The notes beneath the pieces were generated by a model. The model had not been told where the DNA came from and did no database searches. It worked only from the letters and a program-made list of their open reading frames with translations. Position numbers and translations under genes: made by a program. A stretch of 64,000 nucleotides of DNA from the NCBI GenBank assembly GCA_963777955.1, contig CAVZSQ010000015.1:256001-320000 (forward strand), given 5' to 3'. Positions 2,853-57,700 of the stretch are shown piece by piece. The stretch comes from Calditrichia bacterium. GTDB lineage: Bacteria; Calditrichota; Calditrichia; JAJRVZ01. The first letter of the stretch is position 1. Every line of letters begins with the position of its first letter.

Positions 2853-2858
2853 GTCGAA

Positions 2859-3404: not shown

Positions 3405-3464
3405 GATTTCCTCCTCAGTTTCTAACCATTATTGTTAAGAGATAAGTTTAATCTAATAATATGT

Positions 3465-5792
3465 CTAAAATTTTCCAAATTGAAAATGAACCTTCCACTT
3501 GCCCTGGCGTGATCCGTCGGAATTGATGTAATCAAAACCATAACCAAAATCAATGCCGATAATACCGACCATGGGCATGAATAATCTGACACCGACACCG
3601 GCAGAACGCCGCAGTTTAAAGGGATCCGTTTCCCAGACATGTTCCCAGGCATTACCTGCTTCTGCAAAAAACAAACCGAATATAGTCGGGTTGGGCGCAA
3701 TCGGAAAACGCAGTTCCAGCGTATTTTTAACCAGTGCCCGGCCGCCGATCGGACTGCTGCTTGACGTCACGGGCCCGACCTGTCCATCATCATAGCCCCG
3801 TAAACTTTCGGCGTAACTGAGACCGCTGCCACCGAGGTAAAAGTACTCGCCGTACAATACCGCTGTATTGCGGCGAATTTTTTCCAGTACACCATACATG
3901 TTTTCCGAATACAACACAAAGCCCAGCGGCATGGGTACAAACCATTCCATGGAAAAGATGCTTTTCAGATAATCAGAATCTCCGCCCAGCGGTCCGCCGG
4001 AGAGTTGCATTGAGAGCGAGTGAACCGATCCCCGGGTTGGAAATTCAGCCTGGTCACGGCTGTCACGGGAGATAATCTGGGTAATACTCAACTGGCGTAC
4101 ATTGTTAAAACCAGACCCACCCATATATAGCGTTAACTCGGCATCGCTGATATTGCTGATCGTACTTTTTGAATAGCGCACGATCCAATCCCCGCGGAAA
4201 TAGTTGTCAGGCCAGTAAAAGCGGCGGCCAATGTGCACCGAACCGCCGATATCCCGGCGATCCCAGGGCCAGTACCCTCCACCGGTGCGGGTATTATAAA
4301 TCGAAAAACCTGCCAGAGTAGGGGTATTAAATAACCAGGGTTCGGTAAAACTGATTGAGACCGATCGATAAATAAGACCGAATTGCCAATCCAAAGCCAG
4401 GCGTTGCCCATCCCCGCTGGTAAATGGATGGGCGATTGAAAAATTGTTAAAAGAAAGACCTAAACTGCCGATGAAGCCATCGCGCTGACTGTACCCTGCC
4501 GACATATTGGCCATATCGGTGGATTTTTCTTCAACTTTGACTTCCAGGTTAACTTTCTTATTGTCATTTTCAATCAACAGCACATTCGGTATGGCATTCG
4601 AAAAATAGTTCAGTATCGTGATATCCCGGATAGAACGTTCCAGCCGTCCGCTGTTGAAGATATCTCCCGGCTGCAATTTAAACTCACGGCGGATAACCTT
4701 TTCATTGGTTTTAGTATTACCGATGATATTAATTTCATTCACGGTAACGACATTCCCTTCGGTAATATTAAAATTAACGTCCAGGGTATCTTTGCCGACG
4801 GGGGTTTCCATCGGCTGAATTTGAGCAAAAAGATATCCCTGATCGTAATACATTTTCTGCAACCGCTCGGTTATACCTTTATTATATTTTTTCTGATCGT
4901 AACTTTCCCCTTTTTTAATATCCAGGCTGAAGGCTAATTCTTCCTTGGTAAAAATCGTGCTGCCCGTGAAATTGATTGTACCGAAATAATATTTCTCACC
5001 TTCATAGATCCAGATATCGATGAACATATCCTGCTTATCAGCGCTGTAAGAAATCGAATCACGCAATATCTCGGCATCGCGATAACCGTTTTCACGACAG
5101 AATTCCAGTATCTTTTCCAAATCAGCGCTGTATTTTTTTTCATCAAAATCAGCCGAACGCCACCAGCGGTCTTCCTTGGTCTCTTCCATGGCTCCGCGCA
5201 GATCGTCTTCCTCCAGAGCGGTATTGCCGTGAAAACTGATCTTTTCGATCTGGACCTCTTTGCCCTCATTAATCTGTATACGCAGGTCTACGAAACCCGG
5301 ATCGGCACTGACGGTATCCACACTCACCGTGGCCAGCAAATATCCTTCCTTGCTGTACATTTTTTCCACGGCCTGGCGAACCTTGTATATTCTGTAATCA
5401 GATATTTTCATCCCCTTATACACGGCAATCTCTTTTTCGATATCGTCCTTATCAAGTTCGTCATTGCCTTTTATTTCGACCTTGCGCAGGCGGGGATATT
5501 CGGCAACCCGGATAATCAGGTCAAGACCGGCTGAAGTCTGATTGGATACCAGGATTTGAATATCGGAAAAAATACCGAGCGCCCATAAATTTTTAACGGC
5601 GCCCTGAATATCTTCGCCGCCGATTTCCTGCCCGGTCGTCAATCCGGAGTTCAGACGGACGGAACTTGCATCTGCGGTTTTATTTCCTTCCACCGCGATC
5701 GATGAAATTCTGATCTTATTCACCTGGGCCTGAGTCGAGCTCAGCAGTACAAGCGCGAGAATAATAATTTGCAGCCACTTAAACACTAGCAT
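3465..5792 (-). CDS. bamA: Outer membrane protein assembly factor BamA
   Basis: Five POTRA-like repeats (e.g. IIGNTKTNEKVIRREF), LRGY loop-6 motif, C-terminal Phe. Confidence 0.95.
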   Translation of the reverse strand: MLVFKWLQIIILALVLLSSTQAQVNKIRISSIAVEGNKTADASSVRLNSGLTTGQEIGGEDIQGAVKNLWALGIFSDIQILVSNQTSAGLDLIIRVAEYPRLRKVEIKGNDELDKDDIEKEIAVYKGMKISDYRIYKVRQAVEKMYSKEGYLLATVSVDTVSADPGFVDLRIQINEGKEVQIEKISFHGNTALEEDDLRGAMEETKEDRWWRSADFDEKKYSADLEKILEFCRENGYRDAEILRDSISYSADKQDMFIDIWIYEGEKYYFGTINFTGSTIFTKEELAFSLDIKKGESYDQKKYNKGITERLQKMYYDQGYLFAQIQPMETPVGKDTLDVNFNITEGNVVTVNEINIIGNTKTNEKVIRREFKLQPGDIFNSGRLERSIRDITILNYFSNAIPNVLLIENDNKKVNLEVKVEEKSTDMANMSAGYSQRDGFIGSLGLSFNNFSIAHPFTSGDGQRLALDWQFGLIYRSVSISFTEPWLFNTPTLAGFSIYNTRTGGGYWPWDRRDIGGSVHIGRRFYWPDNYFRGDWIVRYSKSTISNISDAELTLYMGGSGFNNVRQLSITQIISRDSRDQAEFPTRGSVHSLSMQLSGGPLGGDSDYLKSIFSMEWFVPMPLGFVLYSENMYGVLEKIRRNTAVLYGEYFYLGGSGLSYAESLRGYDDGQVGPVTSSSSPIGGRALVKNTLELRFPIAPNPTIFGLFFAEAGNAWEHVWETDPFKLRRSAGVGVRLFMPMVGIIGIDFGYGFDYINSDGSRQGKWKVHFQFGKF

Positions 5793-38203: not shown

Positions 38204-40886
38204 CTATTTTGCGGTACGGATTGCTTCCTGCGCGGCCGCTAAACGGGCAATCGGTACGCGGTAAGGAGAGCAACTTACATAATTCATACCCACGCGGTGA
38301 CAAAAACCAACTGAGCGGGGTTCACCGCCATGCTCGCCGCAGATACCGATCTTCAGCCCGGGCTTGGTCTCCCGCCCTTTCTTGACAGCCATTTCCACCA
38401 GCTGCCCGACACCGGTCTGATCGAGTGTCTGGAAAGGATCATCCGGCAGAACCTGCTTCTGTTCATATTCAGCCAGAAATTTACCCGCATCATCACGGGA
38501 GAAACCAAAAGTCATCTGGGTCAGATCGTTGGTACCAAAAGAAAAGAATTCAGCCTCCTCGGCTATCTCATTGGCAGTTAAAGCCGCCCGGGGTACTTCG
38601 ATCATGGTTCCAATCATGTAGTCAACCTTGACTTTAAACTCTTTCTGTACCTGTTCGGCAGTGTTCTTGACCAATGTTTTTTGATTGGTTAATTCTGCTT
38701 TGGTCCCCACCAGCGGAATCATGATTTCCGGATATACTTTGACTCCCTCCTTGGTCAACTGACAGGCTGCTTCCATGATTGCCCTGGCCTGCATCTCGGT
38801 AATTTCGGGATAGGTAATACCGAGGCGGCAGCCGCGGTGTCCCAGCATCGGATTGATCTCGTGCAAAGAAGCTACCTTCGCTTTCACTTCATCCACGGAT
38901 GTACCCAGTTCGTCAGCCATCTCTTTTTGGCTCTTGTCATCCTGCGGTAAAAATTCATGCAGAGGCGGATCCAGGGTACGGACGGTTACCGGCAGATCGT
39001 GCATCGCTTTGAAGATCCCGTAGAAATCCTCTCTTTGATAGGGCAATAATTTTGCCAGTGCTTTACGGCGGCCGGCTTCATCATTAGCCAGGATCATTTC
39101 ACGTACTGCTTTAATGCGGTCGCCTTCAAAGAACATATGCTCGGTACGGCAGAGTCCGATACCTTCGGCGCCGAATTTCCTGGCTACTTCTGCATCATGA
39201 GGCGTGTCGGCATTGGTGCGCACCTTCAGTTTACGGTATTGGTCCGCCCAGGACATCAATATACCAAATTTACCGGATAGTTCGGGTGTAACAGTTGGCA
39301 CTTTTCCTTCGATCACTTCACCGGTTGAACCATCCAGCGAGATCCAGTCCCCTTCTTTTAAGGTCAGTTTACCGACTTTTAAATGTTTCTTTTTATAATC
39401 AATGTTTAAAACTGAACAACCGGCCACGCAACAGGTTCCCATCCCGCGCGCCACAACTGCTGCATGGGAGGTCATCCCGCCGCGGGAAGTCAATATGCCT
39501 TCGGCTACGTTCATACCACCGATATCTTCCGGTGATGTTTCAATTCGCACCAGCAATACCTGCTCCCCTTTGGCTGCCCAGGCTTCCGCATCATCAGCGT
39601 GAAAAACAATGCGTCCGGTGGCAGCACCGGGTGAAGCCGGTAAACCTTTGGCAATAACATTCTTTTTCAGCTTTCGGATCGAAAGTGGGATGCAATAACT
39701 GGTCAATCTGGTTAGGATCGAGCCGCATTATCGCTGTCTTGGTATCGATTAATTTTTCATCGGCCATTTCGACGGCTATGCGCACTGCAGCAGCCGCAGT
39801 ACGCTTTCCGTTGCGGGTCTGCAACATCCACAGTTTGCCTTTTTGAATGGTAAACTCAATATCCTGCATGTCCCGGTAATGCTTTTCCAGCAGATTGTAG
39901 ATTCGATCCAGGTCCTTGTAGGCGGCCGGCATGATCGATTGCAATGTCTGTTGCTCTTTACTGGTTTTAGTAGATTCATTCACCGGCTGTGGATTACGGA
40001 TACCTGCTACCACATCTTCACCCTGAGCGTTTACCAGGTATTCACCGTAGAATTTTCTTTCACCGGTGGCCGGATCGCGCGTAAAGGCCACACCGGTAGC
40101 GCAATCTTCGCCCATATTGCCGTATACCATGGCCTGCACGTTAACAGCGGTACCCCAGTTAGCCGGGATATTATGTAATTTACGGTAGGTTAAAGCGCGT
40201 TGATTGTTCCAGGACTGAAACACGGCGCTGATGGCCCCCCACAATTGTTCCCAGGGATCAGTGGGGAAATCCCTGCCGGTATTTTTCTTGATGGCGGTTT
40301 TAAATAGTTGAACCAATTCTTTCAAATCAGCCGCAGAAAGTTCCGTGTCCAGTTTCACACCGCGTTTCTGTTTTAACTCATGGATGATAACCTCGAAAGG
40401 ATCCTCCTCTTCCTTTGACTGCGGTTTCATTCCCAGCACCACGTCTCCGTACATCTGAGCGAAGCGCCGGTAGGAGTCCCAGCCAAAACGTTCATTTTTT
40501 GAATTGGTTATCAGGCCCTGCACCGTTTTATCATTCAAACCAAGATTCAGCACGGTATCCATCATACCCGGCATGGAAGCCGGTGCTCCGGAACGCACCG
40601 AAACCAACAGCGGATTTTTAGGATCGCCGAATGTCGCACCCATGATCTTTTCAATATAGACCACGCCGGCCTTAACCTGATTTATAACCTCCTGGGCATA
40701 TTTGCCCTTGCTCTTGTAGAATTCATTGCAGATTTCAGTCGAAATGGTGAAGCCAGCCGGTACCGGGATGCCCAGATTAGCCATCTCAGCCAGATTCGCA
40801 CCTTTGCCGCCCAGCAAAAGTTTCATATCGGCTTTTCCTTCAGCTTTTCCATCTCCAAACTTGTAAACAGACTTAGCAGCGGACAT
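38204..40886 (-). CDS. ppdK: Pyruvate, phosphate dikinase (frameshift at A-run near 39665)
   Basis: [38 protein letters not shown] and GICGEHGG motifs. ATG at 40886 follows GGAGGA. Confidence 0.96.
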
Positions 40887-41150
40887 ATTTCCTCCAAACA
40901 GTTGTAATATTATCATCAGATAAATTTCATAAATAAACAACGAATTTATGACACCCTTCCAACATTATCAATATAATTTCGGCTATTTTTCCGGAACTTT
41001 TGAGTAAATTCAGGTTAATTTTTAAAATTTATTTAATTACGACGAATCTTATTCACGCCGAATGTCGTTAGTATAAAATATTATGGCATCTGTCTGAACT
41101 TATTACACAGGCGACCAGGTTATCAGTTATTATAAAGGAATAAAATTAAA

Positions 41151-43591: not shown

Positions 43592-44458
43592 TTATTTCTT
43601 TAAACTGGTTTCCCCGCTCTGGTCAAAAGAAAAAGTCGATTGGGGGATGCCCAGGTTCGGAACAGAAAGATTTAGATCACCGTTCAATTTAAAGGAAAGC
43701 GGTTTATTGCTGCTGAGTAACTGGTAGACCGATGAGCCAATCTGTATAAAATTAAGGGAAAGCGGCAGAGTTAAAGTCTGATTCTTCTTTTCATTCAGCG
43801 AAAAACCCTTGACGGCCGCGGCCTGCACCCAATTAACACCATTTACAGCCAGTCCGTAGTTTAAGTTATTGAATAAGACTGCAAAAGCATTAGCATTCTT
43901 GACATTTAACTTCAATTCGAGATTAGCCCCGGCCAGATTCAGGCTGTTCAGTTTAATTCCTTCCAGGCTGACATTCGGGATTTTGGGCAACGGTACCGAG
44001 CCTTTTTTCGATATTGGAATACGGGTGGCGCCCAGCACAGGCAGATCGAAGGTCAGGCCGCAATCCAGTTGATAAGCAGAAGTGTCCTGATTGATCAGGC
44101 TGGTGACCGTCTGATACATATCGACCAGTTTCAGAGTCAGCGGCAAACTCACTATATTGTCGGCATAGGCGGCAATTTCGATCCCCTGATTCTGATTGCC
44201 GCTGAGAAAAGAGTTGTCATTTATCAGCAACTGGTAATCGAGTCCCTGCAGTTTTATGGCCAGGTTATTCGTATTCTTGATGTTCAGATCAAACAGCAGC
44301 GTTAACTCTGTAAAAGACAGACCGGTGATTGAAGTATTTGCCACCGAAACTTCCGGCGGCTTGATCTGGGATTGCTGTAAAAGATTCAGCACATTCTGGC
44401 ATGAAAATAATAGAAAAGGTATGATCATAATGATGAACAGGCTACGATAGGATTTCAT
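43592..44458 (-). CDS. LEA type-2/WHy tandem-domain lipoprotein
   Basis: Lipobox LFSC; two repeats of P.V......L.......L...L.(I/V).N.N...I....L.Y.L.IN. Confidence 0.8.
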   Translation of the reverse strand: MKSYRSLFIIMIIPFLLFSCQNVLNLLQQSQIKPPEVSVANTSITGLSFTELTLLFDLNIKNTNNLAIKLQGLDYQLLINDNSFLSGNQNQGIEIAAYADNIVSLPLTLKLVDMYQTVTSLINQDTSAYQLDCGLTFDLPVLGATRIPISKKGSVPLPKIPNVSLEGIKLNSLNLAGANLELKLNVKNANAFAVLFNNLNYGLAVNGVNWVQAAAVKGFSLNEKKNQTLTLPLSLNFIQIGSSVYQLLSSNKPLSFKLNGDLNLSVPNLGIPQSTFSFDQSGETSLKK

Positions 44459-44531: not shown

Positions 44532-45962
44532 CTAATTTTTAGGCAGGGAGATCGTATATTCGCAAAAATTTTCGCTGGTAAAAGTGATTTTTATTTTCCC
44601 GCCGTGCATTTTCAGTTTTTTCTTGACCAGATCCATGTCGCTGAATATTTCTTTACTGTATTCGGCCTCGGTTAAATTTGAGGAAGCCAGACTGGGCATA
44701 AACAGCAAGCGGATGACCTCGGAGCCAAGGTGATCACCGGGTAAGGCGTTGCCGATGGCTGAAATTTCAGTTTCACTCGAATCGATGGTCTTCTGTAATA
44801 AGCGCTCAATACGGATCAGCCGGCCGTCATGCCGTAATTTAAATCCGAAAATACGCCGGTCGGCATAAGTCTCGATTTCAATTATACCAGTCGGATTTTT
44901 ATTGGCCGACTTCCTCTCTTCGGGTTTTTCGATGCAATAAAAAACGGAAAAACGGATCAGCAGGATCAGGAATTCACGGACAATTTGCTGATGTGAATAC
45001 GGGATGATTGAATTATCAAAATTTTTATAATTGAACTGAATTTTCCTGCCCAGTTCTTTGGCCAGATTTTCCACCAGATTTTGCAGGGAGCGGATCATCA
45101 GACCGCCTTCGTATCTGCGGGTGGGACGCAACGAATTATTGAAATGTTTGAAGCGTTGCATCAATAATTTAACATCTTCCAGCATATGCCGGATCTCGCC
45201 CAGTTGAATAACTGCCGGCACAAAATCACTGCCCACAATTTCCGCACGGTCTTTAATTTTGCCTATTTCCACTTCAAAGTTTATCAACTTATCTTTGAAA
45301 AACTTAAGATTAAGCAGGGAAGCATTGCTTTTCAGGTGGTGGACAGTGCGTAAAATTTTATGCAGGATTATTTTGCAGTCCTCGGTCCCATGGGCATTTT
45401 TAAGTTCCGTGTCGATGTTATTCATCTCAATTTCGGTGACTTCAATGAATTCTTTGAGCAGGGGCGGTGCAATGCCCAGAATACAGACCAGCCATTCCAT
45501 TTGCTTCTCGGTCGTTTTTTCGATCTCTTCCAGTTTTTTGGTCAGGGAGATCTGCTTGGTCAGATCTTCAACCGTACAAATGAGTTTGGCAATAGCGCCC
45601 TCGGCCCGGATTCGTTTAAACTTGAAGGACAGGAATTTTGAAGAGGTCCATAAACCCCAGCGATTTTCAAATTGAAATTCGCTGAGATGCAGGGGATTTA
45701 ACTCATTGATTGTTTCTTCATCAAGATCGTCACGAAACATCAGATTAAGAAATTCCAGGGTATTGCTGATAATATTTTCAGGCACACGGTGTTCAAGCAG
45801 GGATATAAAATTCTGGCCGGCCGTGACTTTTTGATCGATAATAGATTCCAGGGAAGAAGAGAAATTTTCTTCGATTTCAAATTGCGGATTTAGAAAAAAA
45901 AGACCCTCATCGATCGCGAAGAGGATCAAATTTTTCTCACTGTCAAGTGGTATTGTGTGCAT
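44532..45962 (-). CDS. CheA-like PAS-like/Hpt protein with degenerate HATPase (pseudokinase)
   Basis: Hpt ILRTVHHLKSNASLL keeps the His. N-box reads LIRFSVFYCIE, G1 reads HDGRL and the G2 box is absent. Confidence 0.75.
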   Translation of the reverse strand: MHTIPLDSEKNLILFAIDEGLFFLNPQFEIEENFSSSLESIIDQKVTAGQNFISLLEHRVPENIISNTLEFLNLMFRDDLDEETINELNPLHLSEFQFENRWGLWTSSKFLSFKFKRIRAEGAIAKLICTVEDLTKQISLTKKLEEIEKTTEKQMEWLVCILGIAPPLLKEFIEVTEIEMNNIDTELKNAHGTEDCKIILHKILRTVHHLKSNASLLNLKFFKDKLINFEVEIGKIKDRAEIVGSDFVPAVIQLGEIRHMLEDVKLLMQRFKHFNNSLRPTRRYEGGLMIRSLQNLVENLAKELGRKIQFNYKNFDNSIIPYSHQQIVREFLILLIRFSVFYCIEKPEERKSANKNPTGIIEIETYADRRIFGFKLRHDGRLIRIERLLQKTIDSSETEISAIGNALPGDHLGSEVIRLLFMPSLASSNLTEAEYSKEIFSDMDLVKKKLKMHGGKIKITFTSENFCEYTISLPKN

Positions 45963-46120
45963 CCCTAAGTTCTCTTACGACAAAGCGCATCATCAATTAT
46001 TGGGATCAAAAAAATCGAGCTTATAATCCGCACCGGCACATGGATATAAACTCCCCCTGGCGATACCGTCGACCGGTCATTTATCAGCCGGCTGGTTTTC
46101 AGCCCCGGCTAAGACCCTTG

Positions 46121-46567
46121 CTATTCCAGGCACACCACCAGGAAAGATTTATGCTCATTCCAGTTAATTGGAATAACGAAAGACTGGATGTTGTCAGGCA
46201 GTTTGATGTCTTTGGCTTTCCCTTCCACAACTACAGGTACGGAAATCATAAAATCACTGCCGTAGGCCTGCCGGACGTTTCCGGAAATAGTATTGGCAAT
46301 CTCGCCAACCAGATCTTTAATGTCTTCCCTTTTCACCTCTTTGGCGCCCAGAATGATATGGGCAACTGATTTAAGCATTTCTTCGGTTGTCGTAATATAC
46401 ACGCTTCCTTTACGTTTCCCCGATATACCGATAATACCGGTATATTCAAGTACTACGGGAGATTCATCTTTAATGTAAGGAATACCCGTACTGGCTTTGC
46501 TGTTAGTCACCTCATCAAAATAATTCAAAGTACTATCGATAAAAAAATGAAGATCGGTCTCGTTCAT
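46121..46567 (-). CDS. cheX: CheX-family CheY-P phosphatase
   Basis: YTGIIGISG..KG and DLVGEIANTISGN (E-x2-N) and ISVPVVV motifs. Confidence 0.9.
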   Translation of the reverse strand: MNETDLHFFIDSTLNYFDEVTNSKASTGIPYIKDESPVVLEYTGIIGISGKRKGSVYITTTEEMLKSVAHIILGAKEVKREDIKDLVGEIANTISGNVRQAYGSDFMISVPVVVEGKAKDIKLPDNIQSFVIPINWNEHKSFLVVCLE

Positions 46568-46584
46568 TTCCAGTTCTCCTTGTT

Positions 46585-46959
46585 TTAATTTTGGGCAATA
46601 AGCCGTTCAAACGAGCTTCGCAGTTTCTCGGGTGTGAATGGTTTCGGCAAGAAACTTTTAGCACCTAGTTTAATCGCTTTAAGGCCGGTGGCCTTGTCGG
46701 ACAATGCAGTAATCACCATCACTTTGACGTCTTTCTTGATCTTCAGCATTTCTTCCAGTACGGTTAAGCCGTCTAATTCCGGCATGGTGATATCGAGGGT
46801 CACCACGTCAGGATCGGTTTGCCTGAAAATATCCAGTGCCACCTTCCCATCTTCGGCTTGGCCGACAACCTCGATATTAAAGTTCTTCAGATGTTTGTGG
46901 ATTGCTTCTCTGATGATTAGAGAATCATCTACAATCATCACTTTAACCTTGTCTTTCAT
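46585..46959 (-). CDS. CheY-like single-domain response regulator
   Basis: IVDDS, VVGQAEDG, TLDITMPELDG, ITAL and KPF motifs. Confidence 0.9.
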   Translation of the reverse strand: MKDKVKVMIVDDSLIIREAIHKHLKNFNIEVVGQAEDGKVALDIFRQTDPDVVTLDITMPELDGLTVLEEMLKIKKDVKVMVITALSDKATGLKAIKLGAKSFLPKPFTPEKLRSSFERLIAQN

Positions 46960-46981
46960 ACAACCTCCAGTTTTTATATCA

Positions 46982-47009
46982 TTATCGGATTATATCGAAT
47001 TTATCTTGA
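46982..47009 (-). promoter_or_regulatory. Possible sigma28 promoter for cheY-cheX
   Basis: TCAA-N16-TCCGATAA on the minus strand, 22 bp before the ATG. Confidence 0.45.
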
Positions 47010-47028
47010 ATAATTATGACATAAATTA

Positions 47029-49905
47029 CTATTGATTTCGGTATAAGGGTAAATTTATTTTAAATTCAAAATTCTTTCCCGGGATATTAGTAATTCTGAT
47101 CTGGCCATCGAATTTCTTTATCTTTTCCTTAATTGTATTCATACCGATTCCCTTCTTGGTAACCGGATCAAATTGTTCCGAAGAATAGATTCCCGGTTCA
47201 AAGATCAATTCGCCCAGTTGTGATTCGGTCCAGGAATCGATGGTGGCAGGCTCCCATTTGCCGAGTATTTTTGCCCGCTGAATCAATTTATCGAATTGCA
47301 GACCACAGCCGTCGTCCCGGTAAGAAAATTCGAAGGTATGCTCATTCAGCCGGGACTGAATTTCAATGATTCCACGCTCTGATTTTTTCCGGTTGCGCCG
47401 TTCCTCAGCCGTCTCAATACCATAGCGAATGGAATTGCGGGCCAGTTGCAGCGTAATATCTTTGACCAGGTTCTTATATAGATGGGGAATGGTTGTGCCA
47501 TCGAAATGATCATGGAGCAGGATCACCTGTTTATTCATGGCCGTGCTCATATTCTGAATGAAATTCTTAATGGAATTGAGCATTTTTTCACTCTCATAAC
47601 TGCGTTTGGGCCGGAAGTAACTTTGAATAGTACTCATTTTTTCAATCAGGGAACTGACCTCGCGCAGTGAATATTGAATTTCATTGAGGTGCAGGTTAAT
47701 GCCGATAAAGTCTTTACCCTGGATTTCTTTTTTATCCCGGACCTTGAGAATCAGGTCCTCGGTTTCATCGGCCATATTGGAAAAAAAGGCCAGATCAAGC
47801 AACCCGGAATTCTCTTTAATCGAGCGAACCGACTCGTGTATATTTTCTAAAACCTGGCGGTACACACTTTCATGACCACCCTTGCGCATAACATCGATTA
47901 TGGAGGCCATTTCCATTTGCGCACTGTCGATAAATTCCCGTAACAATTTTGGTTCGACATGCAAAATGCCGATCAACCATTCCAGTCGTTTTTTAGAATG
48001 AGATTCGACTTCGTTTAAACGTTTCTCCAGGCGTACCTGTTCGGTGATATCATCCACCGCTACAAGCACTTCATTAAACTGGCCGCCATCGATAATTCGT
48101 TTAAACTTAAACGACAGGCATTTCATTTCCGCCAATAATTGATTCTGATGGTTAAAATTCATCTCGATGTTGGTCAGCGGATTAAGTTCATTGATACTGA
48201 TCTCATCGACGCCAGGATCAAATATCAATTCTAAAAAACGGGTAACATCATCCAGTCGCTCATCCGAAATTTTATTGCGAAAGAGTTCCAGCAGGTTCTG
48301 CTGGGCTAAATCCCTTCTCTGAAAAATACCTTCCAGGGCCAGTGAGTATTGCGAACTTAATTCGTATTTTGAATTCAACAGAAACAATCCCTCTGCGGCA
48401 TTAGCCAGAATATCGTCGGTTTCGCTTTTCGCTCTCTGCAAACTATTGCGCGATTTGCGCAACTCGGTCTCTATTTCACGCCGTTCCGAAATTTCCTGCT
48501 GGGCTTGCTGGTATAATTTGGCATTTTCAATGGCCGTGGCTATCTGTGTACTCAGCAGGCAGGCATTATCGATATCGCTTTCTTTGAAAGCGTTTACCTG
48601 ATCACTCTGCATGTCCAGCACGCCGATAAGTTTTTTCCCGACGGTGATCGGTACGGCCAGTTCCGAACGGGTACATTCGCTTGCTTTTTTGATAAAATTT
48701 GGATTTTTCAGGACATTGTTGCTCACCTGGACTTTGAAGGATTGTGCGGCGGTCCCGACCATGCCCTCGCCTACCTGCAGGGTCAGATCTTTGGAAAAAT
48801 AGGTACTGTATCCACCGGCCAGCGCTTTTAAGCGCAAGGTCTTCTCATCGTTATCAAGCAGCAGTAACATAACCCCGTAAAAACTAAAAGCGTCACAAAC
48901 CGAGGTGACAATGTCCTTCAACAGGGTATCCAGATCCAGGGATCGGTTTATTTTCTGGCCGATTTCATTAAGCAACGTTGCCTGGCGCGCCCGATGAAGG
49001 GCATCTTCTTCTGCTTTCTTCCGTTTATGCTCCAATTCTTCAATTTTTCTGCTCTCCAGTGCATCAAAATAAAGCGCGGCTGCTCCAAGCAGAGCCATAT
49101 TCTCACGGTCCGATACTTTTATCTCCAGGTTCTGAACCGAACGCTGGAAGACAAAGGAGCGCAGACCCTGATTCAAACTGGTTTTGATCAATTGATAGGC
49201 CCTGGCCAGAGGACCGCCTAAAATAATGATCTCGGGATCAAGGGCACATATAATTGATTTTATAACATCACTGAGATTTAAGCCGAACTGTTTAAAATGT
49301 TCCCGGGCTTTTTTATCCCCTTTTACTGCCAGTTCATAAACCGTTTCGAAAGGTTCCTGCGCTATGTTTTTAAAATATTGATTGCTGCAGTAATATTCAA
49401 AATCATGATCACGATAAGGTATTTTCCCGAATTCACCCACCCCGCAATTGATCCCTGAATATAGTTTATTCTCGATGATGATTCCTGCACCCATCCCCTC
49501 ACCCAGGATCAAGCCTACTACATTTGAATATTTTTTGCCACTGCCAAAATGTTTTTCTCCGGCCGCAAAACAATTGGCATCATTATTTACGTACACCGGT
49601 ACTTTAAAATGTTTATGCAATTTGTCTTTCAGGTGCACTTCTTTCCAGGATGGAATACGGGTCACTTCGTAAACGATCCCTTTTTCCACATCAACAATAC
49701 TCGGTACGCCAATGCCGATACCGGCAACCTGCGCTCCGAAGATTGCCTCGATATGCATGATTAACTCATTGATAATCATGTCCTGGCTGGCTGCTGAAGA
49801 AATTTTATACTGATGAAAAGAATTCAATTCCTGGCCGCTGACCTTCCCCAGGCGCGCATAAATACCGTCTATATCGATGCCAATAATCTGTTTGTCTGTA
49901 TTCAT
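47029..49905 (-). CDS. ROK-GAF-PAS-like-Hpt(His-less)-HATPase CheA-like kinase
   Basis: GIGIGVPS, NNDANC and GEFG (ROK); GEGMVG and RSELAVPI (GAF); IHESVRSIKENSGLL (Hpt-like); RNSIRYGIE, DDGCG and GIGM. No CheW domain. Confidence 0.8.
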   Translation of the reverse strand: MNTDKQIIGIDIDGIYARLGKVSGQELNSFHQYKISSAASQDMIINELIMHIEAIFGAQVAGIGIGVPSIVDVEKGIVYEVTRIPSWKEVHLKDKLHKHFKVPVYVNNDANCFAAGEKHFGSGKKYSNVVGLILGEGMGAGIIIENKLYSGINCGVGEFGKIPYRDHDFEYYCSNQYFKNIAQEPFETVYELAVKGDKKAREHFKQFGLNLSDVIKSIICALDPEIIILGGPLARAYQLIKTSLNQGLRSFVFQRSVQNLEIKVSDRENMALLGAAALYFDALESRKIEELEHKRKKAEEDALHRARQATLLNEIGQKINRSLDLDTLLKDIVTSVCDAFSFYGVMLLLLDNDEKTLRLKALAGGYSTYFSKDLTLQVGEGMVGTAAQSFKVQVSNNVLKNPNFIKKASECTRSELAVPITVGKKLIGVLDMQSDQVNAFKESDIDNACLLSTQIATAIENAKLYQQAQQEISERREIETELRKSRNSLQRAKSETDDILANAAEGLFLLNSKYELSSQYSLALEGIFQRRDLAQQNLLELFRNKISDERLDDVTRFLELIFDPGVDEISINELNPLTNIEMNFNHQNQLLAEMKCLSFKFKRIIDGGQFNEVLVAVDDITEQVRLEKRLNEVESHSKKRLEWLIGILHVEPKLLREFIDSAQMEMASIIDVMRKGGHESVYRQVLENIHESVRSIKENSGLLDLAFFSNMADETEDLILKVRDKKEIQGKDFIGINLHLNEIQYSLREVSSLIEKMSTIQSYFRPKRSYESEKMLNSIKNFIQNMSTAMNKQVILLHDHFDGTTIPHLYKNLVKDITLQLARNSIRYGIETAEERRNRKKSERGIIEIQSRLNEHTFEFSYRDDGCGLQFDKLIQRAKILGKWEPATIDSWTESQLGELIFEPGIYSSEQFDPVTKKGIGMNTIKEKIKKFDGQIRITNIPGKNFEFKINLPLYRNQ

Positions 49906-49941: not shown

Positions 49942-52900
49942 TTAAGATTCTGCTGCGGCAAACGTTTTTTCTTTCAAAGCTGCTTCTTTGGTCTTTTTGG
50001 TTAACGGAATTTTAATCGAAAATTCACAAAATTTTCCGGTTTTTGTATTTATCTTAATGCTTCCGCCCAGGCGATCAATTTTGTCTTTGACCAGATCCAT
50101 GCCTACGCCCCGCCCTGCGATCAGACCCGCTTTCTCCGAAGTCGATATTCCGGATTTATATATAATTTCAGCAACCTGCTGATTAGTCCAGCCATCAATT
50201 TCTTCGGCTGACCAGTGGCCGGAAGTCCTTGCTTTAGCGCGGAGTTTATCGAGTTGCAGACCGCGTCCATCGTCGCGGAAGGTGAAAGCGAAAGTCTTTT
50301 CATTTAAACTCATTTCGATCTCGATGCGGGCCTGCGGATCTTTTTTAAGTACAGACCGTTCCTCGGGATTTTCAATGCCGTGGTAAATGGCATTACGAAC
50401 CATCTGGATAATTATTTCACGCGTGGTCAGACGATAATGGTATGGTATATTCCCGGCATCAAATTTATCGTAAACCAGTTTTACCTTTTTACCCTGCTCC
50501 TGGGCCAGATTATTGATTAAATTCTCGATCGATTTGATAAATAACTCGCTTTCATAACTGCGTTTAGGCCGGAAATGAGAATGCACATTGCTTACGCGTT
50601 CGATCAGATTGTGCAATTCATCCAGGGTCCGCCGGATGTCCCCCAGACGCAACACCAGCGGCACAAAATCTGCGCCGCTTAATTTTGGTTTCTTTTTAAG
50701 ATCTTCGATGCGGTCTTCAAATTCATGCGCTTTTTCCACGAAAAATTTTAAATCCAGCAGAGAAGCATTGCCTTTGATGATGTGCATCGAACGATATACT
50801 TTTTCCAGGACCGGGATAAAATTGCTAACCTGTTCATCCTGCCGCAGGACTTTATCGATGTAGTCTAATTCCAGATAGGCACTTTCAGAGAATTCCTGCA
50901 AAAGTTTTGGCTCCACATGCAAAATGCTCAACAGCCAGTCCATTTGTTTTTTACTCATCGCCAGTGATTCTTCCAGTTTCCGGGCCAGCACAATCTGGTC
51001 GGAAAGATCGTTGACTGTAACGATCAGCTCGGAGACTTTATTTTCATCGTCGATTACCCGTTTGAATTTAAAGGCTAAATACTTTGATTTCAGCCAGACG
51101 TCTGTCTCATCCCTGAAATTAAATTCGATCTCACTCAGCGGATTGAGATCTTTCAGGGTATCTTCATCAACATCGGTCTTAAACATTAATTCCAGAAATT
51201 CCTGCAAATTGGTGAAGAGCTTTGTGGTCATTCTTTTTTCGACGATGTCCAGGAAATTTTTTCTGGCCGCACGTTTTTCTTCTAAAATTTTTTCAACTGC
51301 CAGCGAGTACTGCGAGCGTAATTTCAATTCAGGATCGATCAGGAAAATGCCCTCTTCCACATTACGCATAATATTATCGGTCTCTCGCTTCGAACGGCTC
51401 AGCAAACGATTTCTTTCTTTCAGTTCCTGGGTTCGCTCGGCAACCTGTGATTCCAGGAATATCCTTTGCCGGTCTACCCGTCTCATACTGAGCCGATAAA
51501 TACTATAGGCCAGGCCCAGGACAAAGAAGGCGGCCAATATTCTAAACCACCATCTTTGCCAGAATGGCGGGGCAATTATAATTTTAATGGACGTTCCGGC
51601 TCTGTTCCAGAGGCCATCACTATTCGTCCCGGCGACTTTAAAGACATATTCGCCGCCATCCAGGTTGGTATAGTTGGCATACCGGCGGTTACCACACTGG
51701 ATCCAATCGCGGTCAAATCCTTCCAGTTTATAGGCATAGATGTTTTTTTCGGGATTACTATAATCCAGGGCGGCAAATTCAAATGCGAAAAAATTCTTGC
51801 GGTAAGATAATTGTAATTCATGTATTTCTGAAATGGTAGAATCTAAACTTACTTCCTTATCAAAAATCTTAAACGAAGTAACGATCAGCGGAGGAACAAA
51901 CTGGTGTTCCTTTACCGCCTTCGGGTAGAAACGATTATAACCATTAATACCGCCAAAGAACAATTCACCTGACTTGCTTTTAAAGCAGGCCCCCGCGTTG
52001 AATTCATTACTCTGCAATCCGTCATTGGCATCAAAGTTCTTAAAAGTCAAAGAATCCGGAGCGAAGCGGGACAACCCGCGATTGGTACTGATCCATAAAT
52101 ACCCATCGTCATCCTCGGCCAATCCATAAATGGTACTGTGGGGTAATCCCTCACTTTCGGTAAAACGGGTAAAAATATTTTCGTCGGGATCAAACCGGTT
52201 TAAACCGCCGCCGAGCGTGCCGATCCACATTATTCCTTTACGATCCTGCAAGATTGCCGAAACACGTTCGTGGCTGAGTGAATTTTGATTATCCGGCTCG
52301 GTCATGTAACGATTAAAAGTTTTACTTACCGGATTGAATTTATTCAATCCTTTATAAGTTCCTATCCAGATAAATCCCTTTTTGTCTTCGTACAAGCATA
52401 AGATACGGTTATCGGTTAAACTGTTTTTATCGGCCGGATCATGGCGGTAATGACGAAAATTATTGCGGTCACTGATAAACTGATCCAATCCGGCCCAGGT
52501 GCCAACCCACATATTGCCCAGGTGATCCTGCAGCATGGCCCGGACACTATTGTCGCTGAGACCGGACAAGTCCTTGGGATTGTATTTGTAAACTTTCACT
52601 GAATTGCGGGCGGGATCATATTGACATAATCCGCCACCATTCGTACCGAACCAGATCATTCCGTATTGATCTTCATCGATCACCCTGATAAAATCATCAC
52701 TCAGTGCGTTCTTCTTGCGGGCCTCTGCGCTGAAGACAGTTAACTTATTGGTCCGTTTATCAAAACGGTTGACTCCCTTGCTGGTGCCCAGCCATAAATT
52801 TTCTCTGCGGTCAACCAGAATCGACCAGACCGTGTTATCGGTTAAACTGTTAGGATCTCCCGGTTCGTTTTTGTAGTGACCGAATCTTCTCTTCTTCCAG

Positions 52901-54015
52901 TCGAAATGATTTAATCCGGCGCCATAGGTGCCAAGCCAAATTGTACCTGATTTGTCGGCGTAGATACAACGCAGCAGGTCGCCGCTCAGGCTGTTATATT
53001 TGGCAGGATCGGAGAGCACCTGCCAGAATTTATTGCTGAGCGGATCCAGTATATTTAGTCCCAAATCAGTCGCCAGCCAGATCAATCCGGTTCGATCACA
53101 GAATATAGAATGGATCATGTTATTGTTCAGGCTGTTCTTGTCGTTTTTCCTGGCCAGGTAAGACTTAAATTTCTTGCGTTGTTTATCCAGTTTATTCAAG
53201 CCATGCTGTGTGCCAATCCACAGATTGTGCTGGGGATCTTCCAGAATGCTCAGAATATCATTGCTGCTCAGCGAATTGGCCTGGCGTGGATCGGCGATGT
53301 ATCGCCTGAACCGGAATTCTCCAGATTTAAGTTTCTGGGCAGAACACAAGCCACCCCCCTGCGTACCGATCCATATCACTCCAGATTTATCCTGATACAA
53401 TACAGTAATTTTCTCCGTGCCGAAACTGAAGGGATCCGATTCATCGTTCCAGAAATGGGTGATTTGCCTGGTTTGGATATTTAATAAATCTAATCCGCCG
53501 CCATCAGTACCGATCCACAGATAAATCGTACTGTCCACCAGCAGGGCTGAAACATAGTCGCTGCTGATCGTGTTTTCATTCTTTGGATCATAACGAAAAC
53601 ATTCAAATTTTTCGGTGAAGCGATTGAATCGATTAAGACCGCCGCCCAGCGTACCGATCCATAGATTTCCGGCAGAATCACCGGTCACTGCATTTATCCA
53701 GTTATCACTGAGCGAAAGACTATCCTGCTGCACATGTTTGAAAATCTTAAAATTGTAACCATCATAACGATTCAGGCCGTCCTGTGTTCCGAACCAAAGG
53801 AATCCCTGCTCGTCCTGATAAACATCTTCCACAGAACTTTGTGATAAACCCTGTTCGATAGAAATTCGTTTAAAATTCAGGTTATAATTTTGTGCAGCCA
53901 GTTCACCGAAAAATCCAGGACTGCTCAAAATTAAAAACAGACACAGATAATTGTGATACGATCTGACTTTAACAATCGCACAACGGATGGTTGATCCCCC
54001 GCTACTGCTAATCAT
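49942..54015 (-). CDS. Membrane sensor CheA-like (class III-type) histidine kinase: propeller/Y_Y_Y-TM-PAS-like-Hpt-HATPase
   Basis: Many WIGT..GL repeats, YTNLDGGEY, PPFWQRWWF TM, RSMHIIKGN Hpt, RNAIYHGIE, DDGRG and GRGVGMDLVK. Ends without a CheW domain. Confidence 0.88.
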   Translation of the reverse strand: MISSSGGSTIRCAIVKVRSYHNYLCLFLILSSPGFFGELAAQNYNLNFKRISIEQGLSQSSVEDVYQDEQGFLWFGTQDGLNRYDGYNFKIFKHVQQDSLSLSDNWINAVTGDSAGNLWIGTLGGGLNRFNRFTEKFECFRYDPKNENTISSDYVSALLVDSTIYLWIGTDGGGLDLLNIQTRQITHFWNDESDPFSFGTEKITVLYQDKSGVIWIGTQGGGLCSAQKLKSGEFRFRRYIADPRQANSLSSNDILSILEDPQHNLWIGTQHGLNKLDKQRKKFKSYLARKNDKNSLNNNMIHSIFCDRTGLIWLATDLGLNILDPLSNKFWQVLSDPAKYNSLSGDLLRCIYADKSGTIWLGTYGAGLNHFDWKKRRFGHYKNEPGDPNSLTDNTVWSILVDRRENLWLGTSKGVNRFDKRTNKLTVFSAEARKKNALSDDFIRVIDEDQYGMIWFGTNGGGLCQYDPARNSVKVYKYNPKDLSGLSDNSVRAMLQDHLGNMWVGTWAGLDQFISDRNNFRHYRHDPADKNSLTDNRILCLYEDKKGFIWIGTYKGLNKFNPVSKTFNRYMTEPDNQNSLSHERVSAILQDRKGIMWIGTLGGGLNRFDPDENIFTRFTESEGLPHSTIYGLAEDDDGYLWISTNRGLSRFAPDSLTFKNFDANDGLQSNEFNAGACFKSKSGELFFGGINGYNRFYPKAVKEHQFVPPLIVTSFKIFDKEVSLDSTISEIHELQLSYRKNFFAFEFAALDYSNPEKNIYAYKLEGFDRDWIQCGNRRYANYTNLDGGEYVFKVAGTNSDGLWNRAGTSIKIIIAPPFWQRWWFRILAAFFVLGLAYSIYRLSMRRVDRQRIFLESQVAERTQELKERNRLLSRSKRETDNIMRNVEEGIFLIDPELKLRSQYSLAVEKILEEKRAARKNFLDIVEKRMTTKLFTNLQEFLELMFKTDVDEDTLKDLNPLSEIEFNFRDETDVWLKSKYLAFKFKRVIDDENKVSELIVTVNDLSDQIVLARKLEESLAMSKKQMDWLLSILHVEPKLLQEFSESAYLELDYIDKVLRQDEQVSNFIPVLEKVYRSMHIIKGNASLLDLKFFVEKAHEFEDRIEDLKKKPKLSGADFVPLVLRLGDIRRTLDELHNLIERVSNVHSHFRPKRSYESELFIKSIENLINNLAQEQGKKVKLVYDKFDAGNIPYHYRLTTREIIIQMVRNAIYHGIENPEERSVLKKDPQARIEIEMSLNEKTFAFTFRDDGRGLQLDKLRAKARTSGHWSAEEIDGWTNQQVAEIIYKSGISTSEKAGLIAGRGVGMDLVKDKIDRLGGSIKINTKTGKFCEFSIKIPLTKKTKEAALKEKTFAAAES

Positions 54016-54247: not shown

Positions 54248-54622
54248 TCATTTTGCAATAAGGCGTTCGAAGGCATCTTTTAATTTTTGCGGGCCAAATG
54301 GCTTGGTAATGTAACTTTTTGCGCCCAGACGGAGTGCTTTGAGACCGGTGGCTTTATCGGCTAAGGCAGTAATAACAACAACCTGTACATCCTTATCCAG
54401 CCGGATCATTTCATCCAGGACATCAAAGCCATCGAGTCCCGGCATGGTTATATCGAGAGTAACTATCTCCGGACTATGCTTTTTAAACATCTCCAGAGCC
54501 GAGTTACCATCGGTGGCGGTTCCGATGATCTTAACGTTATAATTCTCCAGGAATTTAGAGATCGCTTTGCGAACCACCAACGAATCGTCAACGATGAGTA
54601 ATTTTTTTTGATTTTTATCCAT
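54248..54622 (-). CDS. CheY-like single-domain response regulator (paralogue of 46585..46959)
   Basis: IVDDS, TLDITMPGLDG, ITALADKATGLKALRLGAKS and KPF motifs. Confidence 0.9.
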   Translation of the reverse strand: MDKNQKKLLIVDDSLVVRKAISKFLENYNVKIIGTATDGNSALEMFKKHSPEIVTLDITMPGLDGFDVLDEMIRLDKDVQVVVITALADKATGLKALRLGAKSYITKPFGPQKLKDAFERLIAK

Positions 54623-54712: not shown

Positions 54713-57700
54713 TTATTCAAAATTGAAATTTATCAGCCAGCGGAACTTTTGATGGTCCTTATTGACAGCCAGGTTGCCGATCCACAAAGGAAAATCCATC
54801 CCGATGCTCTTTAAATTGAATAAAAAATCGGCCCACTTCCCCATTGGCAGCTGTAAACCGAATCCGGCTGATTTTTGAAATTGGCCCAGGGCAGGCATGG
54901 ATCCGGACCAGACCGAACCGATATCGGCAAATACATAAGTCGTTAAATCCCGCAGCATGAACAGGCTGCTATAGCGTAATGGATTAGGAATCACGATATC
55001 CAGATTGCCGGCAATTATTTTATTGTCCAGGATTGGAGTCGGACTGCCGCTCAGCGAAGCACCGCGCACATTACCGCCACCTGCTTTAAATAAATGACCA
55101 TTCTTACGCCAGGGATAAGGCAGACTACCCTTGCTGCGGTAGAATGGTTCGTTGAATTCATCCCAGCCGTTTGCACCACTTAAGTTAAACTGGAATTGTG
55201 CCGGAACTCTTCCCTTGCCGTAGCCGGTATAGCAGCGCAGCACTGCTTGCCAGTCTGAACGTGCATTCGAGAAAATCCGGCTGGCCTCCAGATAAATCTG
55301 AGCAAAGCCGTAAGCGCTGCCTAAAAACGATGTATGGGTAAAAACCGTCACTTCGTATTTTTTCCTCCAACTGTGGCGGTAGTTGGCTGCGGTTTTAAAA
55401 TTGAGGAATAGAGTAGTAACATCATTTTCATCCCAGGCTGCCATTAAATAGGATGGATTAAAAACGTGATGGCCGGTTAATCCTAATCCATACTCGAGCG
55501 ACTTAAGATAATTCTGCGACAGTTGACCGGTCAATCCGCAACTGCCCCCCTCCCGGCCGTCCAGACGGTACAGGCTTAGATCAAACCGGACGTTATTTCC
55601 GATAGCATAAAATGGAGTACGGTAAGAAACTTCCGCGTCGACCGCCGGATGGGCCGTTTTATACCATACCCGGGCGTTCAGTTTATGATCGATGTTCAGG
55701 TAACTCCCATTTAATTTGATACCTGCCCTGGCCTGATCATAGTCATTGTAAAAAAATAACGGCCAGATTTCCCAGATATATTTATCTAAAGGCGGAGCAT
55801 AACTCTGGTAACGCATCCAGTGAAATTCCTGTTCGGGCAGGCAGGAGGAAGTATTATTCAAACTGTTTATATCCGTCAAACTCAGTGTTGAATCAAGTTT
55901 GACCATTCTGATTCCGTCCGACAGGGTCAAATTGGCCGTGTATTTTTTTTGACTGAAATGCCAGTAAGGTAAAGTGATCCGGTTGCCGGCCGGTTCGCTG
56001 CTGTTATCGACCGGTACATGAAAACGTTGTACGGTGCCATCTTTTAAATATACGCTGAAATCAACCGGCATGAAGATTTCGGCTTTTCTATCCAGATTAA
56101 CCTGGCATTTATAAAAGCGCCGGCCATCAATTTTTTCCCAATGCCCCCGGTAGCCCTGGACCGCATAATCCAAGTTTCCGGCTGGTGCTCAACCACTGTT
56201 CAAAAAACCAGTCCAGATCGCGGTTTGCCGTTTTTTCCATCACTGTAATGAAATCCCGGGTGTAAGGATGGTGAAAACACCATTGATTAAAATATTCCTG
56301 CAGGCCCAGGGAGAACAAACTATCACCCAGGGTATATTCCAGCATGAATAAAACCATGGCCATTTTAGAATATTGCAAAATGTAGATATCATCCCCCAGA
56401 TAATCAGAAGGCAAGGCGATAGGATCCCGGTCGAATCCGGATTTACTGTAACGCAGGTACTGCCAAGCCGTGCTCCTGCGGTCGTCATCGCGGTAGGCGG
56501 TTTTCTGTTCAAACCAGCCGGATCTGATCTTCGCTAAATTATCTTTCACTCCGAAGATTGCTTCCATCGCTTTAATTTCAGCAAAGGTGGCAAATCCTTC
56601 ATCCAGCCAGCCTTGCTCGGTCTGGTTATTAGCCAGCAGGCCGTAAAACCAGAAATGAGCCATTTCATGCAGCAGTAAGGCGCGGAACTCACCCGGTTCA
56701 TACTCCGGATTGATATAATCGTTAAGCAATACGATCTGCGGATATTCAATACCGCCGGCCCGGACATACGTATCAGCAATAGTTAATTGTTGATAAGGAT
56801 AATGCCCGAAAGTATCATTAAAATACTGCAGACCCCGCACCGCCCATTCGTTAACCTGTTTCCAGGATTCGCGGTTATAATCCAGTGCCAGGACATTGAT
56901 GGTGATCCCCTGCCATTCCGACTGCATCAATACATAGGCCGGATCGGCAGTCCAGGCAAAATCATGCACATTTTTTGCTTCATAGTACCATTGAACCGGC
57001 CCGGGCGTCTCATATTCTTCTGACTGTTGCCCTTGACTGCTGCTACTGTCCTTTGCGGAGTTCGCTGCGGAACTACTGAGCAAATTGCCGGTAGCACCTA
57101 CTGTAAATCCCGCCGGGACATTTATAGTGACCAGGAAATCCCCCCATTCCTGATAAAATTCGTTATCCAGATGCTGGTGCAGATGCCATCCGTCCCGATC
57201 ATATACCACCGGGGTGACATACCAATTGCCGATGTCGTAATGATTGCCGAGATAGCCATAACGATCACTGGCCGGTGGAATCATTACGGTAAATTTAAAG
57301 TGCCAGCGAACCGATTCACCCGGAGCAAGCGGATGGTGCAGTTGTGTTTTCAGCAGAGTCTGATCGATACTGAAATTTTTCTGCAATGAGTCATTTTCCT
57401 GTATGGTATGGATGGTAATTCCGCCCAGATCGGCTTTAAGGTCGGGCAGGAATAAAGAACCGGCACGGTATTTATTCATATATAAATGGAAGTACAGCAC
57501 CCGCAGGGTATCAGCCGAATGGTTGGTATAAAGTAATGTTTCGTCGATATTCAGATGGTTCAGATTGATATCGAGTTTAACATCCATGGTGTAGTGCACG
57601 TATTGCTGGAAATACTGTGTTTGATCCGGAGTGGACAGCAAATCCATCCGGGGATTGCAGCAGAACTGCAACTGTACTAAATAGAAGAATTAAATTATTC

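Follow-up and report, generated by a model that had tools for sequence, protein, structure and literature searches.

Three neighboring genes in the genome of a Calditrichia bacterium (G000 below) code for paralogous CheA-type proteins, and two of the three are damaged in seemingly opposite places: one has lost the phosphoacceptor histidine, and the other keeps this histidine but has lost its ATP-binding residues. The genes lie in a stretch of 64,000 nucleotides (assembly GCA_963777955.1, contig CAVZSQ010000015.1, positions 256,001 to 320,000; hereafter the window). The question that this locus raises is whether the damaged copies are the two halves of one split kinase acting in trans, as proposed in an initial annotation made from the sequence alone, or whether they serve in some other way. 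We consider it more likely that they are non-catalytic partners that tune the signal. The genes concerned, all on the minus strand, are listed below in their order on that strand.

54248..54622, minus strand: CheY-like 1, a single-domain response regulator upstream of the kinases (Pfam Response_reg, E 2.9e-29; the translation shows the acidic pocket and the Asp, Thr, and Lys residues)
49942..54015, minus strand: intact sensor kinase, 1357 amino acids (aa), with a Reg_prop beta-propeller and Y_Y_Y sensor, membrane helix, PAS-like domain, histidine phosphotransfer (Hpt) domain, and CheA-type ATPase (Pfam)
47029..49905, minus strand: ROK-GAF-PAS-Hpt-ATPase protein, 958 aa (Pfam and alignment), hereafter the ROK protein
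46585..46959, minus strand: CheY-like 2, a single-domain response regulator (Pfam Response_reg, E 8.4e-29)
46121..46567, minus strand: CheX phosphatase (Pfam CheX, E 3.1e-22; E-x-x-N motif, GEIAN)
44532..45962, minus strand: sensor-less pseudokinase, 476 aa, with a PAS-like domain, Hpt domain, and dead CheA-type ATPase (alignment and structure model)

The gaps between these genes are, in the same order, 232, 36, 69, 17, and 158 bases. The CheX gene gives the only match to its family in a profile search of the whole genome, and GEIAN is presumably its functional E-x-x-N motif. The three large proteins have in common a core of approximately 470 residues, whose best solved relatives are CheA domains (PDB search). 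Identity to the intact kinase is 37-42%, and the ROK protein and the 476-aa protein form the least similar pair of the three (29-42% by domain).

The intact kinase retains every catalytic motif in the alignment, namely Hpt VYRSMHIIKGNAS, the N-box RNAIYHG, the G1 box DDGRG, and the G2 box GRGVG. Its phosphoacceptor is His1078 (codon 50782-50784), and among solved structures, CheA P4 domains come closest to it. The membrane helix and PAS-like domain are assigned from a reading of the sequence and from the model of its paralogue; CheW and P3 domains were not found with Pfam. For comparison, ATPase and Hpt positions were numbered as in E. coli CheA, counted from the alignment to 6s1k and cross-checked with the residue list of PMC10410752, so that the G2 box becomes Gly470-Arg-Gly472-Val-Gly474. 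We picked 32 “intact” family kinases on His48, Lys51, Asn380, Asp420, Gly472, and Gly474. At four positions outside this selection, His384, Thr461, Gly470, and Arg471, these kinases are invariant (32/32).

The ROK protein is altered in both its Hpt domain and its ATPase. Its motifs read Hpt IHESVRSIKENSG, RNSIRYG, DDGCG, and KKGIG. In the Hpt domain, His694 is replaced by Arg (CGC, 47824-47826) and a Gly by Glu (47812-47814). All motifs quoted in the initial annotation for the three proteins are found where it had placed them, but its conclusion that the ROK protein “keeps only catalysis” is not confirmed, because the first glycine of the G2 box is Lys and residues 384, 461, and 471 are changed as well. 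Specifically, the G2 box is Lys-Lys-Gly-Ile-Gly, of which the quoted “GIG” covers just the last two glycines. The Gly470 equivalent is Lys (47155-47157), followed by R471K, while the N-box His384 is Tyr (47422-47424), Ser460 is Tyr (47185-47187), and Thr461 is Ser. Asn824 and Asp864 are kept. In total, 7 of 32 conserved ATPase columns are changed, compared to 0.8 on average and at most 5 among the intact kinases.

It might be suspected that the Arg codon arose through faulty assembly and that the ROK protein is an ordinary kinase. This caveat was a fair one because the assembly does contain frameshifts, one of them near 39,665 in the gene for pyruvate phosphate dikinase. However, the same CGC codon is present in G001, a genome of the same genus whose ROK protein is 87% identical (synonymous distance, dS, 0.92), and Arg occupies the position of the lost His in 6 of the 7 close orthologues (the window protein, that of G001, and P0004-P0008). 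In addition, contigs from two of four independent metagenome runs span the codon unchanged at a depth of about 4. The contig from a third run stops 6 bases past the codon without a difference, and the fourth run was not interpretable. Thus the codon is genuine; the orthologues refute an error, to which we assign a negligible chance. Two histidines that might substitute as the phosphorylation site were also rejected. One, four residues upstream and named in the initial annotation as a fallback, is present in just 2/7 orthologues. The other lies in the linker (W-L-x-x-x-L-H-V-E-P), is shared by 26/32 intact kinases, and is missing from the 476-aa protein.

The changes in the ROK protein are inherited. 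H384Y, Ser460Tyr, and the loss of Gly470 each occur in 7/7 orthologues, Arg471Lys in 6/7, and Thr461Ser in 5/7. P0006 carries the changes in the ATP lid yet keeps its own His. P0007 has lost Gly472 as well, and the G2 box is decayed further in both P0004 and P0007. The same ROK architecture is wholly intact in P0009 and P0010, which belong to the same clade (62-63% identity). Because the orthologues share or extend the changes while these two relatives are intact, the decay is recent and struck both the Hpt domain and the ATPase. Other sensor paralogues have decayed independently in a like manner, with repeated loss of catalytic parts (G006, G053, G023, G067, and G068).

The ROK domain itself matches sugar-kinase families with scores under their cut-offs. 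Its N-terminal ATP motif reads DIDGI, and the His of G-E-x-G-H has become Lys; we made this comparison with the canonical ROK motifs. Since ROK domains fused to intact kinases have similarly altered motifs, the protein is likely a sugar sensor.

The 476-aa protein represents a far older case. Its Hpt motif ILRTVHHLKSNAS includes His208 (45339-45341), and Glu230 (45273-45275) is the equivalent of CheA Glu70. The ATPase motifs read RFSVFYC and HDGRL, with Asn replaced by Phe (44949-44951) and Asp by His (44829-44831), and the G2 box is absent. In the structure model (predicted local distance difference test, pLDDT, 78; predicted template modeling score, pTM, 0.43), a PAS-like sheet and a long helix are accompanied by a bundle of four helices and an ATPase fold, with just ~10 residues between the bundle and the ATPase. 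This ATPase matches the CheA P4 fold (template modeling score 0.69-0.74 over the target, E ~1e-8), and the ESM Atlas returned generic HATPase_c/Hpt clusters only. A kinase fold is kept, ATP-binding residues are lost, and the gene is under selection, as is characteristic of pseudo-histidine kinases.

Sensor-less orthologues with a readable Hpt motif were identified in 30 genomes (that of G041 is incomplete and stands outside this count). In a FastTree phylogeny with a midpoint root, no outgroup, and fragments under 270 profile columns left out, 29 pseudokinase rows form one clade (Shimodaira–Hasegawa support 100) apart from 43 sensor kinases. This clade spans six families of the class and is far older than the ROK lesion. 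The adenine-binding Asp420 is His in 29/29 rows, and Gly424 is lost in 29/29; of 95 database sequences that cover position 420, from a set of 97 that overlaps the genomes compared, 94 likewise have His there. The dead ATPase domain carries residues whose conservation is specific to this clade, in the stretches R-I-E-R and F-T-S-E. By simple counting on the single genome pair G000/G001, which is the scope of all ratios of nonsynonymous to synonymous substitution (dN/dS) given here, no segment measured is more constrained than the dead ATPase region (0.010, vs 0.068 for the intact kinase), and the value for residues 190-476 is 0.020. A two-pattern scan of 185,579 species genomes, which is insensitive to distant relatives, returned 25 loci, of which 24 are titled Calditrichota. 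The 476-aa protein is thus a member of an old and strongly conserved pseudokinase clade of Calditrichota. Its family-wide function does not depend on the acceptor His, because this residue is kept in only 9/30 genomes and 52/97 database proteins.

What this clade does keep is its place beside cheX. The pseudokinase gene is directly 3′ of cheX in 29/30 genomes, and in G001 the contig begins inside the gene. In G044, G046, and G057 (90, 95, and 85% complete), the pseudokinase and cheX are present, and no full-length family kinase was found. At one of these loci (L138:6037-8021, in G046), the pseudokinase has the full H-x-x-K-G motif and cheX is its sole companion, the contig carrying neither cheY nor a kinase. 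In a distant system in G028, CheX is fused to a sensor-less, His-less family member, and 3/3 such sequences lack the His. The adjacency to cheX, the kinase-less genomes that have cheX, and the CheX fusion connect the dead kinase with CheX and CheY. Complex prediction suggests, if weakly, that the pseudokinase also contacts the core of the intact kinase, with a score of 0.46 vs 0.00 for the best of three controls, at least 76% agreement in contacts between runs, and a partner pLDDT of 70-71. The mark applied is reached by 116/157 solved and 2/215 mismatched pairs, but at values up to 0.60 these amount to just 18 solved pairs and both mismatches, and paralogues or close cousins of a true partner can pass by likeness.

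Given these observations, we consider one explanation probable, though by a small measure. In it, the intact kinase would feed CheY, and the pseudokinase would take part in the CheY/CheX branch as a non-catalytic partner; the ROK protein, a recently decayed paralogue, would relay a sugar signal by binding. What the data show directly is which residues are changed and how these changes are inherited, how the genes are arranged, how old the clades are, and that purifying selection acts on them. By analogy with CheA chemistry, the intact kinase, and likely the unlinked paralogues too, would autophosphorylate and pass phosphate to CheY, and CheX would remove it again from phosphorylated CheY (CheY-P), as expected from CheX chemistry. 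The pseudokinase is predicted to bind CheY or CheY-P and CheX, perhaps also the kinases, and would thereby set the lifetime of CheY-P; in this lineage, it may also accept phosphate on His208 from intact kinases, as a sink. The ROK protein, having presumably lost its activity, would relay the presence of its predicted sugar ligand by binding an intact kinase and not by catalysis.

The family to which these proteins belong bears on how unusual such an arrangement would be. Class III histidine kinases (HKIII) have their own sensors, an Hpt domain, and a CheA-type ATPase, lack CheW and dimerization domains, and are accompanied by response regulators and CheX. This class was reportedly defined by Adebali et al. 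2017 (J Bacteriol 199:e00218-17) and by Wuichet and Zhulin 2010. The proteins examined here share each of these traits. Their best PDB relatives are CheA, the Hpt domain aligns to E. coli CheA residues 39-99, and the ATPase has the P4 fold; the sensors include Reg_prop, Y_Y_Y, ROK, and GAF domains; and single-domain response regulators and CheX are encoded in the operon. No CheA dimerization domain (H-kinase_dim) or CheW domain is present among the Pfam hits at E up to 0.1. They are not class II CheA proteins, which combine the ATPase and a CheW domain in one protein (PMC10542144), and their scores against NCBIfam CheA models are 24-119, vs cut-offs of 793-950. The NCBIfam scan gave no HKIII model among its hits.

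HKIII are reported to co-occur with pilT (PMC6501615, citing Adebali 2017). In G000 (91.8% complete), however, TIGR01420 has 0 matches and PF00437 none over its cut-off, and PF00437 at 1e-30 has none in G001, G004, G006, G008, G051, and G053 (20 candidates scored in each), although a PF00437 match is present in 75/86 genomes of the class. The system is filed as class III-like because the association with pilT is missing. It further differs from HKIII in the sensor-less pseudokinase that follows cheX and in the use of a ROK fold as input, along with the lack of any PilT/PilB-type ATPase found in the genome. A flagellar or pilus output was rejected for G000, in which flagellin, FliM/N, PilT, and PilB-type ATPases were not found by profile search, and no conserved neighbor that could represent the output is common across families among the 29 loci compared. 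For this operon we favor the view of a class III-like system of sensor kinase, CheY, and CheX that also includes a conserved partner without catalysis and a recently decayed, probably sugar-sensing paralogue.

Several findings weigh against the reading that we prefer. The ROK orthologues keep Asn380, Asp420, Gly422, and Gly424 (7/7 each), as well as Gly472 (6/7), and the ROK ATPase region (dN/dS 0.064) is as constrained as that of the intact kinase, while its Hpt domain is less so (0.124, vs 0.037). Constraint on the ATPase region is not proof of catalysis, because the dead ATPase of the pseudokinase is constrained most of all. G470K, which we presume to be a kinase-dead allele of CheA, was not met with in the literature searched, with most subscription journals outside its coverage. 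In the pseudokinase subclade of at least 57.5% identity, His208 is kept in 41/43 sequences, and both His208 and Glu230 are found in 17/17 representatives (<80% identity), a level of conservation reached by only 19% of the Hpt columns. This pattern fits a phosphoacceptor, and His208 may be phosphorylated there. Finally, 8 kinase-CheY-CheX loci have no pseudokinase beside cheX, and none was found genome-wide in the 5 of these genomes searched (94-98% complete). A role as obligatory output was rejected on these grounds, and because of the same absences we regard the pseudokinase as an accessory.

Because His208 and Glu230 are invariant in the subclade, phosphorylation of His208 in trans is possible, and an intact kinase would be the more likely donor. 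It could even be that, in this lineage, the 476-aa protein is mainly a phosphoacceptor, modified by the intact kinase or by one of the six unlinked paralogues, which relays phosphate to CheY or drains it, with no part for the ROK protein as donor. Four of the nine His-bearing pseudokinases do accompany His-bearing kinases only, the predicted complex with the intact core points the same way, and His, Lys, and Glu occur together in four of the 97 database sequences, which are at least 85% identical. However, the Lys three residues past His208 is replaced in 40/40 sequences at 58-85% identity, and the second Hpt His, present in 32/32 intact kinases, is missing from nearly all. Moreover, the acceptor His is absent in 21/30 genomes. 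On balance, we judge this role unlikely.

The split-kinase proposal requires instead a heterodimer in which ATP is bound by the His-less ROK protein and phosphate is passed from it to His208 of the 476-aa protein. In its favor, both lesions are real and inherited, and they occur together in G000 and G001; the N-box and G1 residues and the constraint on the ATPase described above are as expected for an active enzyme, and the CheA3/CheA4 pair (PMC2817712) provides a precedent. The degeneration is less complementary than it first appeared, since the lid changes affect 7/7 ROK orthologues, including the His-bearing P0006. Furthermore, the two lesions do not travel together. A family sensor protein is encoded upstream in 25 of the 30 pseudokinase genomes (adjacency inferred across contig ends for G001 and G008), and in 20 of these 25 operons there is no His-less partner. 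The five His-less partners are the two ROK proteins, one protein in G006 whose G2 box is lost, and those of G067 and G068, which end before the ATPase and sit beside pseudokinases that are themselves His-less. Thus none (0/5) has an intact G2 box or ATPase domain. Of the His-bearing pseudokinases, nine in all, a His-less partner accompanies three and no partner is in view for two, in addition to the four mentioned above, and intact kinases are the sole likely donors in most subclade genomes. A conserved acceptor His together with both halves is found just in G000 and G001 and not across the family. The greater age of the pseudokinase, the low similarity between the two proteins, and the lack of a P3 dimerization domain also speak against a split kinase, which we regard as quite unlikely. 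The same low probability applies to its most specific form, in which the sugar-sensing ROK kinase of one genus gave up its own His, phosphorylates His208 of an ancient pseudokinase beside CheX/CheY with a reshaped lid (Tyr, Tyr, Lys, Lys) that works in trans, and so forms a second, independent split CheA-type kinase by recruitment.

Alternatively, the ROK protein might keep some kinase activity and act on the His of intact kinases. In E. coli, full-length CheA can serve as a substrate for the short CheA form that lacks the His, and the ROK protein retains its N-box and G1 residues, is 42% identical to the intact core, and is encoded by the adjacent gene, just 36 bases away. However, the changed residues lie in the lid and in the G2 box, and P0004 and P0007 decay further. 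The G2 box has been proposed to contact the His domain in catalysis (PMC10410752, citing Bilwes et al.). We give this option slightly less credence than the split kinase. A very improbable option is that the kinase half is a relic scaffold and that selection acts on a separate sugar-kinase or sugar-binding role of the ROK domain. The sub-threshold matches to sugar-kinase families and the purifying selection on this domain (dN/dS 0.075) would agree with such a role, but the altered ROK motifs fit a sensor, and the kinase half is constrained as much as the ROK half.

ROK domains fused to His-bearing class III-like kinases were also observed at L024 (G006), L023 (G007), L062 (G071), and L078 (G002). 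Their scattered positions in the tree suggest that the sugar-kinase fold has been used repeatedly as a sensor. A stand-alone ROK gene is located at G000:C19:382918.

Among known systems, one comparison is with CheA3 of Rhodobacter (Cereibacter) sphaeroides, which likewise carries an Hpt His beside a decayed ATPase (PMC2817712, PMC6829392, and PMC10542144). CheA3 couples to the dephosphorylation of CheY-P, and here cheX adjoins the pseudokinase. Neither CheA3 nor CheA4 autophosphorylates alone (PMC2817712; PMC10542144). The analogy drawn in the initial annotation is apt in this respect but breaks down elsewhere. CheA4 has no Hpt domain and is a proven kinase, and both proteins have CheW domains and reside in receptor arrays. 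In contrast, the His-less protein examined here has a changed lid, CheW and the CheA dimerization domain are lacking, an intact kinase is encoded in the operon, and the acceptor His is lost in most of the family. DivL, RetS-GacS, and a ChrS variant show that dead or altered kinases can regulate by binding, without the His or the ATPase (PMC9491836 and PMC12189002). Those are class I kinases with DHp domains, however, whereas the proteins here are of the Hpt/CheA type and their partners are predicted.

A further parallel can be drawn within CheA itself. E. coli CheA-short together with CheZ is an example of a non-autophosphorylating CheA form that is tied to a CheY-P phosphatase. Unlike the 476-aa protein, it is translated from cheA itself and has a working set of ATPase motifs, and the phosphatase is CheZ.

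The system is a variation on known signaling logic. What is new is the double decay of the ROK paralogue, the subclade that keeps His and Glu, and the link to CheX. No paper on this system in Calditrichota was found in the literature searched, most subscription journals lying outside its coverage. Class III-like kinases have received little study, and for their output there are only proposals. The present locus contributes a pseudokinase that occurs class-wide and is linked to CheX, sensor paralogues that have repeatedly lost catalysis, a ROK fold as input, and genomes in which the proposed pilus output was not found. Its six proteins form a small purifiable set in which the influence of dead kinases on a CheY signal, whether they feed it or damp it, could be examined.

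The CheX-fusion locus of G028 would be a better place to seek a trans-acting kinase. There (L137:4088-6118 and 1507-4074; G028:C81), CheX is fused to a His-less PAS-Hpt-ATPase protein that keeps its N-box and G1 box. An intact CHASE8-HAMP class III-like kinase and CheY are encoded beside it, and the next gene encodes a fusion of CheX with a class I hybrid kinase. At 43-44% identity, two relatives of the His-less fusion are likewise without the His.

The ATPase-less sensors of G067 (L066:4128-8123), G068 (L071:2720-6724), and G023 (L031:2517-6518) are propeller-GAF proteins that end after a degenerate Hpt domain, and their genes lie directly upstream of cheY-cheX-pseudokinase.

Elsewhere in G000 there are six further family paralogues; five are intact in a single frame, and a frameshift interrupts the sixth. 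The gene for an unlinked family kinase whose N-terminal domain is a receiver (G000:C15:11080-12931), located 3′ of a CheR-like gene, is broken into two frames near 12,467. The genome also has one classical CheA/CheW/receptor cluster, and both of its CheW matches are on another contig. Among the 86 genomes of the class, the family profile has matches at 1e-60 in 41, and those relatives that carry titles are from Calditrichota.

Within the window, a two-domain LEA_2 protein that is likely a lipoprotein (43592-44458) is encoded 3′ of the pseudokinase, an arrangement found in G000, G001, and G006 only. Overlapping same-strand open reading frames of 486 and 514 aa (54713-57671), the first of which has no Pfam match, meet at 56127-56173 and may represent a single gene with a frameshift. 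The gene for pyruvate phosphate dikinase (38204-40940) is interrupted at a run of A nucleotides (~39,663-39,667) and forms a single 901-aa frame in G001, and its frameshift is likely an assembly indel.

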